Source of the DNA: Octopus vulgaris
Lineage: Eukaryota
DNA length: 64,000 nucleotides
Assembly: GCA_951406725.2 (NCBI GenBank)
Contig: OX597826.1
Coordinates: 51,894,001 to 51,958,000, forward strand
Direction: 5' to 3'
Shown: positions 4,720 through 63,153 of the stretch, one piece after another
How positions within the stretch are numbered: position 1 is the stretch's first letter
How the letters are laid out: each line of letters begins with the position of its first letter
Notes under the pieces: model-generated
Told to the model about the DNA's origin: nothing
Database searches by the model: none
The model's input: only the letters and a program-made list of their open reading frames with translations
Program-made: the position numbers and the translations under genes

Positions 4720-7700
4720 GGAAGTCCTGCGTCCATGAGAATGTGGTGAAGCATGCAGACCTGGAGGGTTGGAAGCATGTAGTCAGCGACCTGCACGTAG
4801 GTGGCCCATGCTAGATATAAAGTCGTCCCCTTGTCGCTCAAGACAGCGGTAGGATAAGGTTACTGCATGGGTGTCTGAGCACCTCCATTTGGAGAGGGCA
4901 CTGCTCACCCGTAGGCCGGGGAGGTTCTAGAAAAGGTGAACCAAAAATTGCCGTCAGTTTAGCGCGACTGACGGATGTCCAACCTGCGCTCGAAAAACAA
5001 AGACTTTTATTTACAAAAATCTAGATAGAACTTAAACATTTCATGTTGGAATGTGCGCATACTGTTGGATAACAAGAGTGATTGTAAGCCTGAAAGACGC
5101 ACTGCACTTGTTGCTCGCGAGCTGAACCCTTATAACATTGATATAGCTGCATTCAGAGACTCGTATAGAAGGTGATGGTTAGCTTGAGAAAGTAGGAGGT
5201 GGATACATCTTTTTTGGAAGGGGAGACAGAAGAGGGAGTGCAGAGAGGCTGGTGTTGGCTTTGCAGTTCGTTCTGATATCCGTAAGAAGTTGGAGGAGCT
5301 TCCTCTTCCAATAAATGAACGTCTAATGACTCTACGATTGCACTTGAAAGGTGGGCGATTTGCTACTCTAATAATTGCCTATGCACCTACTCTGACTAGC
5401 TGTGATGAAGATAAAACTATTTTTATACCCAGCTGACAGCCATACTTAGGAAAATCTCCAATTCTGATAAAGTCATTCTACTGGGGTATTTCAATACCAG
5501 GGTTGGAACAGACTGGTAAACATGGAACTCTCTAGAACGTTTTGGAGTAGGGAAATGAATAGCAATGGTCTCAGGTTGCTAGAGCTTTGCGACGAACATG
5601 GACATCGCAAGCACTCATTTTATGCACAAAGGTGATCACACAACAACGTGGATACATCTAAGGTCTAAAGCTTGGCACTTGTTGGATTATGTCATCATTC
5701 GCAAGCATGACATCTGAAACATTTGTAATGTCAAATCCGTTCATGGATCGGAATGCTAGACAGACCAGTCTGGTGCGAGCAAAGTCCCGGATGATGATTA
5801 AAATGAAAGATAGAAGAGGGTCAGTCAGCATCTCTCGGCGTCTGAATGTCTACAAGATATATGATGCTGTGTTGAGGAAAGAGCTTCAGACTCACTTGTC
5901 CAGCATTGAAAATACTGCAGCAAGGGAAGATTTTCGAGACCAGGTTCTTCAATGTGCCGCTTGAACACTGAGATATGCTACTGCCAGACACAGAGATTTG
6001 TTTGATGAAAATGATGCCGAAGTTCAGCGACTGTTGCATGTAAAGCGTAGTGCCCACAATGTGTGGCTACACAGAGGACTTTGTGATGTACAGCGAAATC
6101 TAGCACTTACCCACTATAGCAGTGTAAAATGACTACTGCGGCGATCGCTCAGGAAGATGAATACTTGGTGGGAGGATCGTGCACGTGATGTTCAGGCTGC
6201 TGCTGTTGCAAATGACAGAAAATGACAGCAAGAAGCTTTACCATCTTGTGAAGTAAGTTCTTGGGCCAAAGAGCTCCACATCAGCCTTTGCGTTGCAGTG
6301 AATCTTTCATTCTATTTACTAAATCAACAGAAATCACTGGTCGCTGGATCAAACACTTCTCTGAACTCCTAAACCTTGAGTCAGTTGTGGATGAAACAGT
6401 GACTGATACTATGCAACAAAGACCTATCAATGGCTCCATAAATTCCACGCCCTCAATAGCTGAAGTAATGACATCAATAAATAAAGGATGGAATTTGTGC
6501 TGAGATCTTGCGATTTGGTGGTGATTACATCACACAGTCCCTTCCGGAACTTATTAATGCAGTCTTGATGGATGGTTCAATGCCTGAGGACTGGAAGGAT
6601 GCAATTATTCTTCCTTTCTATAAAGGAAAAGGAGCCAGAACAATGTGTGGTAAGTACAGATGTATTGCTCTAATATCAAGTACTAGCAAGGTTCTGGCAA
6701 ATATTCTTCCTATCAGACTGAATCGGTGTCTCGTAAATGATGTCTTATCTGAATCTCAATGTGGCTTCCGATCTGGTGGATGGACAATGAATATGATTTT
6801 CACAGCAAGACAGATGCAGGCGAAGTGCTATGAACAGAATATGGATCTTGTCCAGGTATTCATTGATTTAACGAAGGCCTTTGATACTGTAAATAGGGCC
6901 TTTCTATGGAAAATACTTGGCAAACCTGAATATCCGGATCACTTTGTATCTATAATTAAATCATTTCATGATGGGATGGAGGTTTGGGTCAGTATTGGTG
7001 GCGAGATCCATCACTGTCAACTCTCTTTTCTTTGTACTTTGCTGCTGCTTTTACTCATGCTTTTGCTAAGGTTAGCTCTATGGGAATATATATCAGATAT
7101 CGATCTTATGGCCGCCTCTTTAATCTGCACCGATTTGTTGTCAATTCAAAAGTTTCCAAGTCTCTTATTCGTGACCTTCTTTATGTAGATAACTGCGACT
7201 TAGTCTTGTACAGTGGATGACATGCAAATACTTATGAATTGTGTTTCTGCATCCTACAAGGCATTTGGACTCAGCATTAACCTGGACAAGACTGTTGTAA
7301 TGTTCCAGCCTGCACTAAGAAATCCATATGTGGAACAAGCTATCTTGGTTGAAGGAACAATTCTGAAAGTGGTAGACAAGTTTGTCTACCTGGGCAGCAC
7401 ACTCAGTCGTTCTTGCTCCCTGGATGATGAAATATCTTTCAGGCTGCAGAGAGCGACTGATTACTACCGATCTCTTAAGTCTCGTGTCCGGTGGACCCAG
7501 CATGGCATCACAAGGCAAACAAAAATTGCCGTATATCGTGCATGTGTACTGACATCGCTCCTTTACTCATGTGAGGCGCGGACCCTTTACAAACGTCATG
7601 TAAGAGTCCTTGGACGTTTCGATCAGAGATGTCTCAGACCTTAAAAACTCTAGACATACAAGCTCTGAGGAGAGCTGATATCTTGAGTATTGAAGCGATG

Positions 7701-8180
7701 GTGCACAAGCACCGGTTGCGTTGGACTGGACACCTTATTAGAATGAACCATAGCAGAATCCCTAAACAGATGTTATAAGGGGGAACTTATGAATGGAAAG
7801 AGACCTCAGCAGAAGCCAAGGCTCCGATTTAAGGACTGTGTCAAGTCCTCATTAAAGGCCTGTGACATGCAGGAGACTGACTGGGAGAACAATGCCTGTC
7901 ATCGCCACAGATGGAGGAAGCAGGCTAAGGCAAGGGTTGACACTTTTGAGAGGGCACGTATTCAACATGAAGAACTTAAGCGTGCTTCTCGAAAGCGCAC
8001 TGCTGGTGTAGCGAATGAGGAAAGCTTGGTCTGCAATGTTTGCAGTCGTGTATGCTTGACAGGTGTAGGGCTCATTAGCCACCAACGGAGCAGCAACTGC
8101 AAAATATAAGTTAGTCCTAGAGTGCACAATGTCCCTGAAATTCAGCAATGCTCTTCCTCGGTCACGAGTGGACGGCCATC

Positions 8181-11676: not shown

Positions 11677-11738
11677 TAATAACTGATGAGATGCCGGAGG
11701 AGATCTTAGCCCCGGTATCCGAACTCTTAGTCTTATTA
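11677..11738 (+). ncRNA. Degenerate type I hammerhead ribozyme motif
   Basis: taataa-ctgatga-gatgccgg-loop-ccggtatc-c-gaa(A missing)-ctcttag-tc-ttatta. Stems I and II pair. Flanks are homologous to the element at 39980-40140. Confidence 0.6.
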
Positions 11739-34329: not shown

Positions 34330-35715
34330 CTTGTATCTAATAGATAATAGCCACCTCAATCAATCTACATCCTCCCGTGATAATCGCCATTAGATCTGTA
34401 TAGTCTAAGATAACCTTTAAGACCGGCAATACTTGGAAAAGTTGTAGTAGATAAGGTTCGAAATTACTACGGGGTTTGTAACTTGCTTCTGGTTTGGTAA
34501 TCGTATGCACTTTCATGTCTCTTTTCAAACCAAGACTCAACGCTAGCAATATCTTCCTTCACCAGAGATTTCAATCTATTTTTGTCAGTAGCTTTCTTTT
34601 CCTTGAATTGAACATCTATTTTCAGTTTTACTAAGCTGTCATGTATCGTTTCTTTGGAGTATGTTATGGTCGCTCTCCATATCATAATATACCATAAAAT
34701 ATCTGCTTAGACGGACATGCATGTGATATGCATAGAAGATGCCCTGCCCATCATATTTTATTTTGTACTAGATAGGACTCAGTTGACACAGAGCCAGATC
34801 CCTTGAAGTTTCTTAGTATCTGATCTCACATTTTCCTATTTTAACTTTTAAAAAAAGTGGACAAAGCTAGTACTAGATTATTAAGAAGTACTGGGTCGGT
34901 TCTCTTCTTCAACGAGGCACCCCAATGTTCATTCACTGAAACAATAAAATGAAATATATATATATATATATACACATTTACATATATGCATGTACGTATA
35001 TATATATATATGGGATGTTATTACTCCGCATGAAATCAAAGTCTCACGTAGCAGGCTTCATAATTATTGAGATTTCTTTCGATAAGAAAAATATGGTAAC
35101 CTTGTTAATGGACAAATAATGAATGTTTGTCCACCAATACGATGTTGAGCACGCCTCACTCTTCCGTATTACACACAAATACACACACACACACACACAA
35201 CACATACACACACACACACATACACACACTCACTCGTATATATATCGTTACAGACAGATGAATAGAAAAGTATGCCATCTTTCAATGAACATGCAATTTT
35301 AGTCTCAGTTTGCAAAATATAGATTGTCAGTTATCACTCCAAGACACGTTGCTTTACATTTCATTTTAGAATGCAAAAATAAAGAAATAATAACAAAACG
35401 ATTCGTTGTGCAAGTACAACAAATAAATTTATTAATCTATATATATCAAAAGCAATAATGAAATAAGGGAGGGTTTAGTTGATACTGTCGACTGAATATT
35501 TGACTAGTGCTTTATTTTATCCAAAGAATGAAAAGCAAATTTGGCCCCGGCAGGATTTGAACTCAGAACGTAAAATGCAGTCGATGAGCTCACGGTTGGA
35601 GTAACCATGTTTGGCACAATTTTGCTCTTTTGTTTGTTTTATTTTTCTAAAATTCTTTATGTGATTCCTTGTTATTTTGTGATAGTAATTCAGTTTTCAT
35701 ATTGTATTTTTACAG

Positions 35716-36757
35716 ATCGATTCTTAAAGCTTCCGGTGCCAGCCCATTCCTTGGACCATTATTTTTTGACAGTGATGGCCATATACAGATATCGAATTTT
35801 ATAATCAAAAACCTAATACACGATGGAGAAAAAGTGACATGGAGAGAGATAGGCTATATTCGCAATGGTGATGTCAGGATTCGTGAGCCTATATGGCCCA
35901 TTGATCATATTCTACCAACATCTGTGAACGGACGTACGCGTTATCGGATTGTTACGAACCCTGTTAAACCTTTTGTAATGGAAGAGGCTCCTCATAAGGA
36001 TTACAACGAATGTATGTCAGATACACCGTGTTTGAAACTATCCTCAAAGGATAAAGAACGGACTATAGAAGCTCTTCGAGACTTCGAAGCTGGTGTGTTA
36101 AATCAGAGTAACCCTTGGGAAATACGTTGTTGTCGAGGGTTATCCATTGACTTATTAAATAAGTTGTCTATCGACTTAGATTTCGACTTTACATTATTTC
36201 TCGTTTTTGATAAATCCTATGGAGCCTACAGTAACGGATCGTGGAATGGTATGATTGAAGATCTCCTCGAGAGCACAGCACATATTGCCATGGCAGCCTT
36301 TAGCATCACCAAGTCACGTGTCAAAGCTATTGATTTTACGGATCCTTATTTTTTCTCAGGGTTTTCTATCCTAGTTGCTGATCGTGTCAGGGATCCACAT
36401 ATGCAAGCATTTTTGGAACCTTTTTCCATAGGTGTATGGTTTGCGATTTTTATCAGCGCCACAGTCACTGCCGTTGCAATGGCCTTGTTTGAGTGGAACA
36501 GTCCATTTGGACTAAATCCATGGGGACGAAAACGAAAGTCAAACTATACAATGGCTTCCGGATTAAACATGGTATATTCTGTATTATTTGGTCATACAGT
36601 CAGCACCAAATCCCCGAAAGCATGGCCAAGTAAAGTCATGCAAAATTTCTGGGCATTTGCTGCAATATTTATTATAGCAAGCTATACTGCCAATCTTGCT
36701 GCCTTCATAGCCGGGAAAAATAATGGAGTCGGATATAATGGAATCTATGACAGCAGA
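35716..36757 (+). CDS. Grin3: Large coding exon of a GluN3-like NMDA receptor subunit (end of ATD, S1 ligand-binding segment, M1, M2 pore loop, M3)
   Basis: Acceptor ttttacag ending 35715, donor gtaagt at 36758. Translation contains CCRGLSIDLL, SYGAYSNGSWNGMIEDLL, AFSITKSR..IDFTDPYF, FLEPFS, EWNSPFGLNPWGRKR, LFGHTV..KSPK.W and SYTANLAAF. EWxSPFG, the LFG pore and KxPKxW match vertebrate GluN3A/B better than GluN1/GluN2. Confidence 0.92.
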
Positions 36758-37108
36758 GTAAGTAATTCCTCTCTCTTTCTCTCTCTCTTACTTGAATAAC
36801 ACGTTTTTGAAACAATATCTACTTTGAAAGGATTGTGTTGAATTCATTTTAAATATATATTTTAAAATTCTTTCAGAAATTCTGAAAAGATACAATTTAA
36901 AACAATTGTGATCGGTTTACATTGAACAAGCATTAATAGGAAGGCTTGAAATTACTAAAGAATAGATATAATTACACATTAAACCATATTAGAAATACTC
37001 GCAAGAAATATTTCTGTTGTGTTTAATATTAATTGCATATGTATTTTCAATTATCATCAACCTGTTATATAAATTTTACATTTAAAAGAATATATATAGT
37101 TTACCATG

Positions 37109-41455: not shown

Positions 41456-41562
<107 letters not shown>

Positions 41563-41675
41563 GTATAATTTAAAAATAGGATAAAATCTTCACAAGAAAT
41601 TATCAAGTAGTTAGCGTGAAAAACCTCATAAGAGAAAAGATCTGTAAATTTTTTCACTTGAATATATTTATTTAG

Positions 41676-41961
41676 ATTATATAGAGGGCATTATTACACA
41701 TAAATGCCGCACGCTAGGAGGGACTCTTAAAGTCAAAACTACCAAAATAAACATATCGTACCGAATGCAAGTCTCGAAGCAAGTCATTTAAAAACAGAAT
41801 TTAGCTGCATATCACCAGTGATTTCGTAATCAACGCAGTGGCTGCGTCCCTTACTCATCAGTACAGCGAGATTCAAGATATATAATGAATGAACAAAATC
41901 AACATACCAGACGAACAACGATCGTATCCACATTTATGTGTAATAATGCCCTCTATATAAT
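41676..41961 (-). mobile_element. Short non-autonomous element with 31-bp inverted repeats enclosing a hammerhead ribozyme
   Basis: attatatagagggcattattacacataaatg (41676-41706) / catttatgtgtaataatgccctctatataat (41931-41961). Ends at a (TA)n tract. Confidence 0.8.
41804..41867 (-). ncRNA. Intact type I hammerhead ribozyme
   Basis: Minus strand gctgta-CTGATGA-gtaa ggg acgcag cca ctgcgt tga ttac-GAAA-tcac tg gtga-TA-tgcagc. All core nucleotides present, G10.1-C11.1 pair, three pairing stems, AUA triplet. Confidence 0.9.
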
Positions 41962-41965
41962 ATAA

Positions 41966-42002
<37 letters not shown>

Positions 42003-42590
42003 CGTGTGTATTTATATGTGTGTGTGTGCGTGTGTTTGTTTGTGTGTATGTGTGTATATATTCGTATTTATATATATATATATATATATATGAATACGAA
42101 TATATATATACACTCACTCATACACACGCACACATATTTGTATAATGTATGCGTGTGTATGACAGAGGATTTTGTTTCGTGTCATAAACACACTAATATT
42201 AATGTCTGAGATATGGTGAAGTAATGTACGTGTGATACAAAAATTATCACATGTAGTGATTTTCACAGAATTCCAGCAGTGTCCTAGCGGCCATTTATAT
42301 AATTTCAGTTCACTTCACTTATGTATCTTCATATATGTATCTGTAGTGTCCGTCCTGTAGGGTAGTTTTCTTTTTCTGTAACACCTGAAGCTGATATTGT
42401 ATTCTAACAAAGTGTAAACAAATGTCATTTTCTTTCTGTCTACAGTGAGAAAAAAAGTTATTACCTGACTAGTTTCGCTTTTCACTTCATTTATATCTGA
42501 AATACTATAACATTTGATCTGCCTGTGTATTATAATTTTATTAATTGAAATATACATGAATGAATGGCTCCAAAATTTTAATCTGATACA

Positions 42591-44244: not shown

Positions 44245-45488
44245 TACGACGGTGGGCTGAAAAGTTCATAAGACGATTATAAGGGAGTGATGCTGGAGCT
44301 GTGAAGTCTTGGATGCATTTATTTCCACTGACATCTGACTGTTCGAAGAATATTTCAAAAGTAACTAGTAAGAATAGTAGAATCGACAAAATTTGGCATC
44401 GTGGTGTTATCAAGTACCTGCAGAAAAGGGGTTTATCCCTCAGCGACATTCATGATGACATGATTACTGCATTAGAGGATGCCCCTCCAGCTTTGTCAAC
44501 GGCGCAAATGTGGGTAGTTGTGTTTAGAAGTAAGGGGGAGAATCTTGGAGATGACAAAAACGTCTGGAGGTCCTGCAACTGCTACCACCAAGGAAAATCT
44601 TGATCGATCTTGTTCTCCACTCAATGATGGAATGCAGACGATTGACTAGAAATCACATAGCCAAAGCTATTAGCATATCCCGTTAGTGACTTGAGAATAT
44701 TCTGCACAATAAACTTGGTATGACAAAGTGTTCTACTCTGTGAGTGCCACGTCTTCTGACGCCTGATCAAAAGTGCACCAGTCTGATCACATCAAGGGAA
44801 AATATGACTTTGTTCGAGGCAAATTCAGCTTGTTTCCTTGAACATTTCCTAACCCAGATGAGTTTTAGGGTCACTACTTTGAGCCCGAGAAAAAAGACAA
44901 TCCATGAACTTGAAACCTCACCTGCTCCAAAGAGGGCTAAATTCGTCTTAGCTGCAGAGAGGTTGGTGACCTCTGTTTGTTGCGGTGTAAAAGGCATTGT
45001 TTATTGACTATGTTAAAAATGCACTCGACATCAATAAAGAGTACTATGCCAACTTACTGAGGCACGAATGGTTATCGATAACAAGCAACTAGGAAAACTG
45101 ACGAAAAATCTCTTGTTTCATTAGTACAATGCCCCAACACACAAGCCCTTGGTTTCAATGCTGCTGTGCATGACTGTAGCTTTGAACTGATTGACCACTC
45201 TCTCTATTCTCTTCATTCGGTCTCATCTACTGTATCATATGTTCTACAACATGAAAAAAACACTTGGCTGGGAATCAGTGTCGCAATGATAGTGGCACCA
45301 TATCTATTGTTGATGACATTTTCGATCAACAGAATGAAAGCTTCTTCACCAATGAGATCCAAACTCTGCAACAACGATGGGATAAGTGTGCGGAGCGCAT
45401 GAGGAGACTATATCGGAAAACGAGCCACCTTTGGTCCCATTCATAAGAGTCTCTCGATCAGCCTATGAATTTTCAATCGACATTTGTG
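44245..45488 (+). mobile_element. Full-length decayed mariner element (~1.24 kb)
   Basis: TA + TIR cgacggtgggctgaaaagttcata and a degenerate right TIR cctatgaattttcaatcgac. Transposase relics HRGVIKYLQKRGLS, (W)VPRLLTPDQK, KGIV.IDY, L.QRWDKC. Confidence 0.88.
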
Positions 45489-54999: not shown

Positions 55000-56430
55000 T
55001 TGGTCCAGGCCATGTCTAACTTAATAGCACCACCTGATAGGATTATCTAAATCCTGTTTAAGTCAAGTTTTGTTTATGGTCCATTCAAGTAATGAGATCT
55101 TGTTGAGTGAGTTGTATGCAGGTATGGGTGGCTCATCCGGTATTCCTTGGAAAAATCTGTCCAGATTCCATTTAAAGTTGATGGGATACTTTTCCTCTTT
55201 GATCTCTTTCGGGACAATATTAAACAGGGCAGGGCCTGTTGAAGAAAAGAAATTATGTCGCAGTGCACCTATATGCTGTGATCCTGAATTGGGCAGGGGA
55301 CGTATGGTCCGTGGTCCCAGTCTTGGATGAACCTTGAAACTAATGTTCAGGTCTTTTGGGCAATGCTGGCAGTATATTCTCCACATCGTACAAATGATGT
55401 ACCGCTCGCAGCGGTGCTAGAGAGAATAGAGTTTCAAGGCTTTAAGGCGGTCCCAATAATCGATATCAGTCATGTCTTTAATTCGTTTAGTGAGTGTTTT
55501 GTAAGGAGATACCATAAGGGGCAGCAGTATTCAAGGTGTGGCCGTACAAAAGAGGAGAAAAGTGGAATGATAATACCTTGTTCTCTTGACCGGAAGGTTC
55601 TTAAGATTCAGGTGCTCATCCTATGAGCTATATCGACCTTATTGCTGATGTTGGCACTCCAACTGAGATTGTTATCTAGAATTAAGCCCAGGTCTCTGAA
55701 ATTGTTAGATACTGTGAGCGGTTCCCCTGAAGGAAGAGAGTATAGCTGTTTTTGCATAGACTTCCTTCCAAAATGCATCAGCTCAAATTATCCCTCGTTC
55801 AGTTGCATTTTGTTTTTGTCTGCCCATTAAGTCACAGCATATAGATCAGACTGGAGTTGAGTTCGGTCTGCTTCTTCATTGATGATTTGCTGGAGCTTAG
55901 TGTCATCAGCAAATATTTTCACTTTGCAGTGATTTACGACGCTGGAAAGGTCATTTATGTAAATTATATAGAGAGCGGGCCAAAGACAGTCACCTGAGAG
56001 ACATCACTGGTGACTTTTTGCTAGGCTTGAGTGGACTCCATCGACTACAGCATGTGTTCTATTCGCCATGAAATACTTAATCCAGTATAAAAGTTTTCCA
56101 CGGATTCCAGCATTTGCCAATTTTGAGAGGAGGATATTATGGTCAACCCTGTCGAACGCTTTACTGAAGTCAAGAAATATGACATCAGAGTTTGAACCTG
56201 TTCCCAAGGCTTTAAGTATATCTTGAATGTGGTGCATGAGGTGTGTTAGGCAGTCCCTGCCACAGCGAAAGCCATGCTGATTTATATTTAGTAGTTTGTG
56301 GGTCTCCAGGAAGTCAGCTATCCTTGATCTTACCACTCTTTCAAATACTTTAATGGTGTGGGAAGGTGAGTGAAATTGGGCGATATTTGACTACGATAGA
56401 TCTGTTTCCCTGTCTGAAAACCGGAATGAT
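55000..56430 (-). mobile_element. CR1-like LINE reverse-transcriptase 3' fragment
   Basis: YRPISLT, QHGFRCGRDCLT, FLDFSKAFDRVDH, FADDTK, RDLG and RPHLEYC motifs, with frameshifts. Confidence 0.9.
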
Positions 56431-62298: not shown

Positions 62299-63153
62299 CA
62301 GTAGTTTTATTTTTATAGCGTGCGTTCACTTCACTACCGAGCACAGCTCTGTGTGCCTTGGGTATGTGCTGTGATTTGTTGCGATGCTCTGATGGTTATT
62401 GTATGGAAAGTGTTCTGCGTAGGATGTGTGCAGTGCCTAGTAGTGCAATTTTATGTATGTTATATGTGTTTGTAAGTCCTGGTGTTTTTGTTATGTATTT
62501 GTCTGAATATTTTTTTATCATGCCTAATGCACCTACTATGATAGGAATTGTTTCTGTTTTCAGATTCCACATTCTAGTTACTTCTATTTCCAGGTCTTTG
62601 TATTTTGAGAGTTTCTCCATTTCTTTTAGAGACACGTTGTCATCAGCCGGTATTGATACATCAATTAGAAAGCATTTTTTTCTTCATGATCTCTGACAAC
62701 TATATCTGGTCTGTTGGCCTTAATTTCTCTATCTGTGTGTATCGGCATATCCCAGAGTATGGTTGCTTTCTCGTTTTCTGTGACCTTTTCTGGTGTGTGC
62801 CTATACCATCTTTTTTCTGTTGTTATTCCATAATGTTGGCATAGCTTCCAATGTATGTAGGTTCCAACTCTGTCATGTCTGTGAATATATTCCTTCTTAG
62901 CCAAGACTGGGCAGCTAGAGATAATATGATTTATTGTTTCTTGTCCATCTCCACATATTCTGCAGTTACTTGTAATATTTCTTTTCATTACATGTTTTTG
63001 GTAATTTCTGGTGGGGAGGCTTTGGTCTTGTGCTGCAATTAAAAATCCCTCTGTTTCTGCTTTGAGTCCTGAGCTTCTCAACCATTGCTGGGATTTTTCT
63101 GTCTATTTCTTTTGCATTTAGTTTAGTCCAGTATTTACCATGAAGGGGCTTTT
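62299..63153 (-). mobile_element. 5'-truncated R4/Dong-like non-LTR retrotransposon inserted in (TAA)n
   Basis: LKAETEGFLIAAQDQSL, CCHC knuckle CRIC...ETINHIISSC, RHD, RPDIVV (REL endonuclease), EKLSKYKDL and PIIVGALG. One frameshift, a 3' UTR, and triplet repeats on both sides. Confidence 0.92.

Follow-up and report, generated by a model that had tools for sequence, protein, structure and literature searches.

A hammerhead motif in an Octopus vulgaris intron belongs to a truncated retrozyme copy, likely inserted by a Penelope-like mechanism

Introduction

A window of 64,000 nucleotides from the genome of Octopus vulgaris (contig OX597826.1, positions 51,894,001 to 51,958,000; all coordinates below refer to this window) contains a hammerhead-like sequence between two perfect inverted repeats, inside an intron. 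What kind of element is this, and how did it get there? The original prediction, made from the sequence, described a fully canonical ribozyme enclosed by 31-bp inverted repeats that end at (TA)n.

Two kinds of mobile sequence are relevant here. Retrozyme monomers are reported to circularise in coral, mussel and axolotl (Cervera and de la Pena 2020, PMC7229834). Penelope elements carry hammerheads in their pseudo-LTRs (pLTRs; PMC4209133), and are known for inverted 5'-truncated copies, a one-sided tail and a bias towards (TA)n (PMC8557442, PMC3846280). A link between retrozymes and Penelope elements is described in a 2026 preprint (10.64898/2026.07.22.740005). In the open-licence literature that we searched, no title or abstract opening pointed to a paper about the present family, octopus hammerheads or Penelope twin priming.

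Results

Anatomy of the hammerhead motif

The minus strand at 41804-41867 contains every core base, as had been claimed: C3-U4-G5-A6-U7-G8-A9, G12-A13-A14, A15.1-U16.1 and H17, which is an A. The predicted 6-bp stem I and extended stem II with an internal loop were likewise recovered (Table 1), so that a CUGANGA / GAAA / UH core lies at a three-way junction with an open stem I. A strict type I descriptor matched this site only in the whole window and found no match in any of 200 block-shuffled windows. As sole match it is, at the level of sequence, the best ribozyme candidate in the window. The distal extension of stem I, paired in 98% of the cells of the family alignment, could serve as partner for a loop 1-loop 2 contact.

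Rfam gave no hammerhead match for 41804-41867 with the gathering cut-off applied, nor with E<=10 allowed. A match in Rfam is a library criterion rather than a defining property of the hammerhead fold, and our identification therefore rests on the descriptor and on covariation among copies.

Table 1. Features of the insertion, its hammerhead motif and its surroundings (window coordinates).
Feature	Position	Strand	Remarks
GluN3-like NMDA receptor exon	35708..36757	plus	GTAAGT donor at 36758
Left flank, (TA)n(CA)n(TA)n microsatellite	41456..41563		likely part of the target site
Whole insertion, sub-monomer retrozyme copy	41564..41973	minus	long arm and short inverted arm; BLAST to the L007 unit
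Long arm, 5'-truncated	41564..41931	minus	unit 249 to 500 and 1 to ~126; 3' end at fixed site B; 95% identity to the L007 unit
"Tail" between fixed ends A and B	41564..41663	minus	~100 bp, one side only; outside the originally predicted coordinates
Long-arm segment duplicated by the inverted arm	41664..41706	minus	41/43 identical; 41676-41706 = perfect 31 bp
Distal stem I extension	41797..41874	minus	GAAU 41874-41871 with AUUC 41800-41797, beyond a 3x3 internal loop
Type I hammerhead	41804..41867	minus	core, descriptor, covariation
Hammerhead stem I	41867-41862 pairs 41809-41804	minus	6 pairs, one G-U
Hammerhead core CUGAUGA	41861-41855	minus	
Hammerhead stem II	41854-41826	minus	4 bp + GG/GA internal loop + 7 bp
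Hammerhead GAAA	41825-41822	minus	
Hammerhead stem III	41822-41811	minus	
Hammerhead A17	41810	minus	predicted cut between 41810 and 41809
Short inverted arm	41931..41973	plus	unit 474 to 16; 3' end at fixed site A; 43 bp
Perfect 31-bp repeat (inner part of short arm)	41931-41961	plus	
Right flank, (TA)n(TG)n microsatellite	41974..42060		likely part of the target site

Stem III differs from the original description. Five base pairs in the monomer would need a 2-nt loop, which the energy model of ViennaRNA forbids, and this variant was rejected; stem III instead closes a CUGG loop with 4 bp, A15.1-U16.1 included. The proposed monomer fold itself is possible, at a predicted -17.6 kcal/mol, which is 2.1 kcal/mol above the predicted minimum of -19.7 kcal/mol, and the predicted pairing probability of stem III was 0.02. 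Nearest-neighbour energy models leave out the tertiary core, so the energy comparison carries little weight. Being self-complementary, the stem III segment could also pair between two copies, for which 12 bp with two G-U pairs were computed (-14.4 kcal/mol).

Compared with canonical metazoan type I hammerheads as described in PMC4209133, the motif has the same 6-bp helix I, 4-bp proximal helix II and G10.1-C11.1 pair, and a similarly self-complementary helix III able to pair between copies. It differs in its helix III of 4 bp instead of 1-2 bp, in the 7 bp of helix II beyond the internal loop, and in its AUA triplet.

Three more CUGAUGA cores with partial hammerhead anatomy occur on the plus strand of the window, at 11683, 23139 and 39517. 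The latter two resemble minimal Penelope-type ribozymes with a near-palindromic stem III, and the first has a long stem II but GAAC instead of GAAA. None of the three satisfies the hammerhead descriptors.

Variation of the ribozyme across copies

Sister copies, which the original prediction had suggested looking for, were numerous. A search of the 2.8-Gb genome with 41680-41957 as query yielded 1742 first-look candidates; 40 of them were scored, and the best places were 90-97% identical over query positions 1-252. A core no better conserved than its flanks had been put forward as refuting the ribozyme. Taken literally, this is what we observed: across 38 copies (3 short matches were dropped), the core was no better conserved, with 0.0335 differences per site against 0.0346 in the flanks (i.e., 3.4% vs 3.5% of the copies), and singleton rates were alike (0.45 vs 0.49 per site). 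Equal rates are expected for decay after insertion, and this comparison is a poor test of a ribozyme because inserted copies decay neutrally. The core was intact in 25 of the 38 copies, and U4C was its sole shared variant. Hammerheads with this variant (CCGAUGA) and a bulged stem I form a subfamily of 14 among 72 (L014, L016-L019, L025, L030 and others), which must have amplified with the variant, since U4C is shared.

We aligned 68 of the 72 family hammerheads, leaving out four that were partial or rearranged; 65 of the aligned sequences were distinct. Paired cells amounted to 94.1%, compared to 23-42% in slid controls, and three pairs of stem II had changed on both sides, in 13, 16 and 19 of the 65 rows. 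The number of covarying pairs (6) was not above that in shuffles (289/500), and none of the covarying pairs in the 68 aligned hammerheads was in stem III. The register of stem I shifts between subfamilies. Judged by its core and by covariation, 41804-41867 is a real type I hammerhead motif.

"Fully canonical" was too strong a description, given the 4-bp stem III with its low pairing probability and the cleavage triplet: 47 of the 72 family ribozymes have AUC, 13 have AUA, as does this one, and 12 have another or an unread triplet. According to a review, cleavage at AUA in engineered hammerheads can lag behind that at GUC or GUA by up to several orders (PMC3138052). RNA of 41804-41867, if transcribed in vitro, would probably cleave, more slowly than its AUC sisters. 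The 4-bp stem III, the AUA triplet, the single ribozyme and the antisense intronic position argue against high activity.

A tandem repeat family without protein

Locus L007 extends over more than one 500-bp unit, the end of which wraps to its start without an open reading frame (ORF). The family unit is about 495-500 bp, tandem, with 34% GC and a longest Met-ORF of 79 aa. Folded as a circle, it reached -120 kcal/mol (z -3.3, 30 shuffles). Two whole tandem hammerheads, ~500-530 bp apart, were present in 3 of 79 places (L039, L069, L083). The family thus combines a short tandem unit carrying one type I hammerhead with dispersed copies, no coded protein and a GC content below 50%, which are the features of non-LTR retrozymes. 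Our copy contains one hammerhead and less than one unit. From its sequence, we identify 41564-41973 as a truncated copy of this multicopy, protein-free tandem-unit repeat, a non-LTR retrozyme.

The family resembles metazoan non-LTR retrozymes, as far as these are described in the sources cited, in its non-coding tandem unit with one type I hammerhead, its GC content, its dispersed monomers and multimers, the self-pairing of the circular unit and the co-occurrence of Penelope-like elements. Its long stem II, interrupted by an internal loop, sets it apart from them. Its unit is longer than the circles of 170-400 nt in PMC7229834, and lies inside the range of 51-972 bp in 10.64898/2026.07.22.740005. 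The latter preprint regards elements with two tandem hammerheads as "active", whereas our copy has one; of nine dimers predicted there, only one underwent cleavage (Li, Clavereau and Pollet 2026).

In public sequencing data, matching contigs numbered 3673, 1693 and 1053 in three large runs with three organism codes. The strand changed at 9 of 13 joints among those listed for these public-run contigs. In four presumed-RNA runs, out of 17 with family matches, family fragments occurred as contigs, which give no strand, ends or level, and none of the listed runs with family sequence was labelled as RNA. Depth of DNA-run contigs was far higher at 41679-41756 and 41601-41639, the regions of the fixed ends, than over the ribozyme. 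These segments may be common to related families, or the excess may simply reflect 5' truncation.

Structure of the insertion

The 31-bp inverted repeat (41676-41706 / 41931-41961) is perfect, as stated in the original prediction. Its full length is 43 bp with 2 mismatches (41664-41706 / 41931-41973). The idea that these repeats enclose the ribozyme as the ends of an element did not hold, since what looked like an end is really a 5' inversion junction. None of 29 sister loci has the right-hand repeat after query position 252, and most run on into more family sequence. The repeats were also said to end at (TA)n. This is correct for the right arm; on the left, the element runs on for ~100 bp to about 41564. 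The outer ends of the insertion are uncertain by several bases within TA-rich sequence, and both lie inside (TA)n, where a target-site duplication cannot be read. Close analogues of this layout are L164 (39-bp arm) and L154 (52-bp arm). Two loci 22 kb apart on contig C11, L003 and L009, contain the same two-armed insertion with near-identical flanks; because insertion and flanks occur twice, this insertion predates a local duplication.

Arm ends across copies

We pooled 150 loci from five DNA searches, merged overlapping loci and counted L003/L009 together, which left 79 places. These are the best-scoring few among thousands of candidates, one query selected B ends, and BLAST arm ends blur within TA flanks. 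Within this sample, 44 places were head-to-head, none tail-to-tail, 32 single and 3 other. The 3' ends of the arms fell mainly at two sites ~110 nt apart: 56 of 135 at site A (near unit 16; 36 exactly) and 55 at site B (near unit 126; 37 exactly), or 111 in total, with 24 ends elsewhere. TA-rich flanks adjoin 72 of the 111 A/B ends. The 5' ends were scattered across the unit, inner breakpoints varied, and arm lengths ranged from tens to hundreds of bp. Hence, the copies show an inverted, 5'-truncated head-to-head arrangement with a one-sided tail, which characterises Penelope-type insertions.

Both ends could be classed in 27 of the 44 head-to-head pairs (17 had an unclassed end), and 25 of these 27 combined one A end with one B end (p = 2.8e-6 vs 50%). 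Arms of the A+B pairs crossed the ribozyme cleavage site in 22 of 50 cases. Only 6 of 135 5' ends were within 3 nt of the cleavage site, without a sharp peak and in a region enriched by the queries. Enrichment at this site is not convincing, which weighs against our explanation.

Could the element instead be a DNA transposon, such as a miniature inverted-repeat transposable element (MITE), that is bounded by terminal inverted repeats of 31 bp, targets TA and carries a hammerhead as cargo? MITEs are short and non-coding with an inverted repeat beside TA, as is 41564-41973, and here a perfect 31-bp repeat does adjoin TA. In MITEs, unlike here, the repeats are the family's common termini. The absence of the right-hand repeat at this position from all 29 sister loci, the continuation of the element for ~100 bp past the left repeat and the wide range of arm lengths make this origin extremely improbable, and we rejected it, as the same terminal inverted repeats do not bound all copies.

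An alternative that alters only how the inverted repeat formed is that the short arm came from fold-back or repair copying of the first cDNA instead of a second priming on RNA. At our locus the long arm covers the whole 43-bp arm, with identity over the inner 31 bp; furthermore, the two fixed ends, being TA-like, could anneal to target DNA. However, neither arm contains the other in 14 of the 25 A+B pairs, so that in these pairs one arm was not copied from the other by fold-back. In 14 A+B pairs the A arm extends beyond the B arm on the 5' side, and in 2 the arms do not overlap. The inversion junction of 41564-41973 has only 1 nt of microhomology. We consider fold-back copying unlikely.

Penelope-like elements in the genome

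The genome contains a young Penelope-like family (L171-L176; e.g., L171:2245-4587) with an intact 781-aa ORF for reverse transcriptase (RT) and GIY-YIG, and copies that are ~98% identical. It has two 3' ends ~40 bp apart (a ~40-bp tail) and (TA)n flanks, and in L174 the arms are inverted with one end of each type, a layout that matches that of the retrozyme copies. Some copies have an upstream open frame of 330-480 aa. The linker is CxxxxCxxC, Neptune-like in the terminology of PMC8557442. A relaxed scan found no convincing hammerhead in this family, and its sequence has no link to the retrozyme unit.

Comparison of 26 Penelope-like loci (6 full-length, 20 GIY-YIG matches) with the unit yielded only AT-rich chance matches (E>=0.027). 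L128 holds a separate retrozyme copy, apart from its Penelope-like sequence. Among these 26 loci, which cover a minority of the genome's Penelope-like families, we found no autonomous partner of the retrozyme family, a point against our explanation within that scope.

This result also bears on another origin of the unit, as the pLTR of an autonomous Penelope-like element yet to be found, of which the copies would be the 5'-truncated ends. The insertion footprint is the same as that of Penelope elements, Xenopus retrozymes are reported to be related to pLTRs (10.64898/2026.07.22.740005), and our comparison covered just the 26 loci. Against this stand the 25 of 135 arms that exceed one full unit and re-enter it without an ORF in between, the tandem hammerheads in L039, L069 and L083, and the short longest Met-ORF. 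A pLTR origin is therefore, in our judgement, quite improbable.

The host gene

An ionotropic glutamate receptor exon, most similar to GluN3A, makes up the ORF at 35651-36799; over 326 aa its product is 100% identical to an annotated Octopus bimaculoides protein. Mapping this protein places exons at 1365-1649 and 35708-36757, and the next one at about window coordinate 107,500 (L188:3503). Motifs and distant paralogues used as queries did not find the downstream exons; the full-length homologue did. The host intron thus spans ~71 kb, from 36758 to about 107,500, and the insertion lies inside it, antisense to the plus-strand gene as originally predicted. With pieces at L188:3503-3640 (the exon near 107,500) and L190:6106-6267, the gene has very long introns, and a paralogue (L184 on contig C7) has the same large exon with 45% identity. 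Elsewhere in the window, the ORFs at 6481-8109 (+), 44283-44603 (+), 56004-56390 (-) and 62319-63102 (-) resemble fragments of LINE reverse transcriptases and of a mariner-type transposase.

The intronic position raises the question whether the copy was co-opted as an active ribozyme or hairpin that regulates the GluN3-like gene. Its core is intact and its 6-bp stem I unbroken, and it is one of the 19 family rows (of 68) that satisfy the strict descriptor; moreover, on each of the two strands the inverted repeat would fold into a long hairpin. The pre-mRNA, though, has the opposite polarity to the ribozyme strand, and the triplet is AUA. Only 4 of 252 positions deviate from the family majority, which marks the copy as a recent ordinary insertion. 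We regard co-option as very unlikely.

Discussion

Our results indicate, with good though not complete confidence, that 41564-41973 is a 5'-truncated, single-ribozyme copy of a non-LTR retrozyme, and that a Penelope-like reverse transcriptase/endonuclease, priming from both cut ends, likely placed it in a TA microsatellite. The inverted repeats are likely the scar of a Penelope-type insertion and not the ends of a dedicated element.

Such an insertion could proceed as follows. Tandem source copies would be transcribed, and the hammerhead would cut the multimers into monomers, which may circularise. A Penelope-like enzyme would nick both strands at (TA)n. One cDNA, primed at unit ~126, would run for ~370 nt through an intact cleavage site, and the other, primed at unit ~16, for only 43 nt. 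Head-to-head joining of the two cDNAs would leave an inverted repeat and a one-sided tail. Arms longer than one unit need a multimer or a circle as template. Arms of the same insertion differed by 4.4%, compared to 5.2% for different insertions (n=19, p=0.06), a small difference that fits one template or two. The anole Penelope enzyme is reported to behave comparably in vitro: it nicks AT-rich DNA, both strands are extended, and there are two internal RT starts (PMC11167929). Hammerhead cleavage was not required in that system, and uncleaved RNA was the main template.

The copies share with Penelope-like elements, as described in PMC8557442, PMC3846280 and PMC11167929, the 5' truncation, the adjacent inverted truncated copy and the (TA)n targets, as well as an optional one-sided tail from two fixed 3' ends and a hammerhead in the repeat. 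In contrast to Penelope-like elements, the octopus unit has no ORF, its hammerhead has a full stem III and not the minimal form, and its tail is ~100-110 bp compared to 30-40 bp in the published elements. The last difference weighs against our explanation.

The fate of this particular copy is likely a dead end, because a monomer cannot be released by a single hammerhead and the strand present in the host pre-mRNA is the non-catalytic one. As one decaying copy among very many, the single locus matters little. The family, by contrast, is a natural data set on the mobilisation of animal retrozymes, a question listed as open in 10.64898/2026.07.22.740005. Its two fixed ends mirror the two in vitro RT start sites of the anole Penelope element (PMC11167929). 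We tentatively suggest, at somewhat less than an even chance, that this footprint, in which arms cross the intact cleavage site and exceed one full unit, arises when a Penelope enzyme primes from both DNA ends at two internal sites on circular retrozyme RNA. If true, two-site priming on a circle would be direct genomic evidence for the reinsertion of animal retrozyme circles, and it would name two cis sites for the existing in vitro Penelope system.
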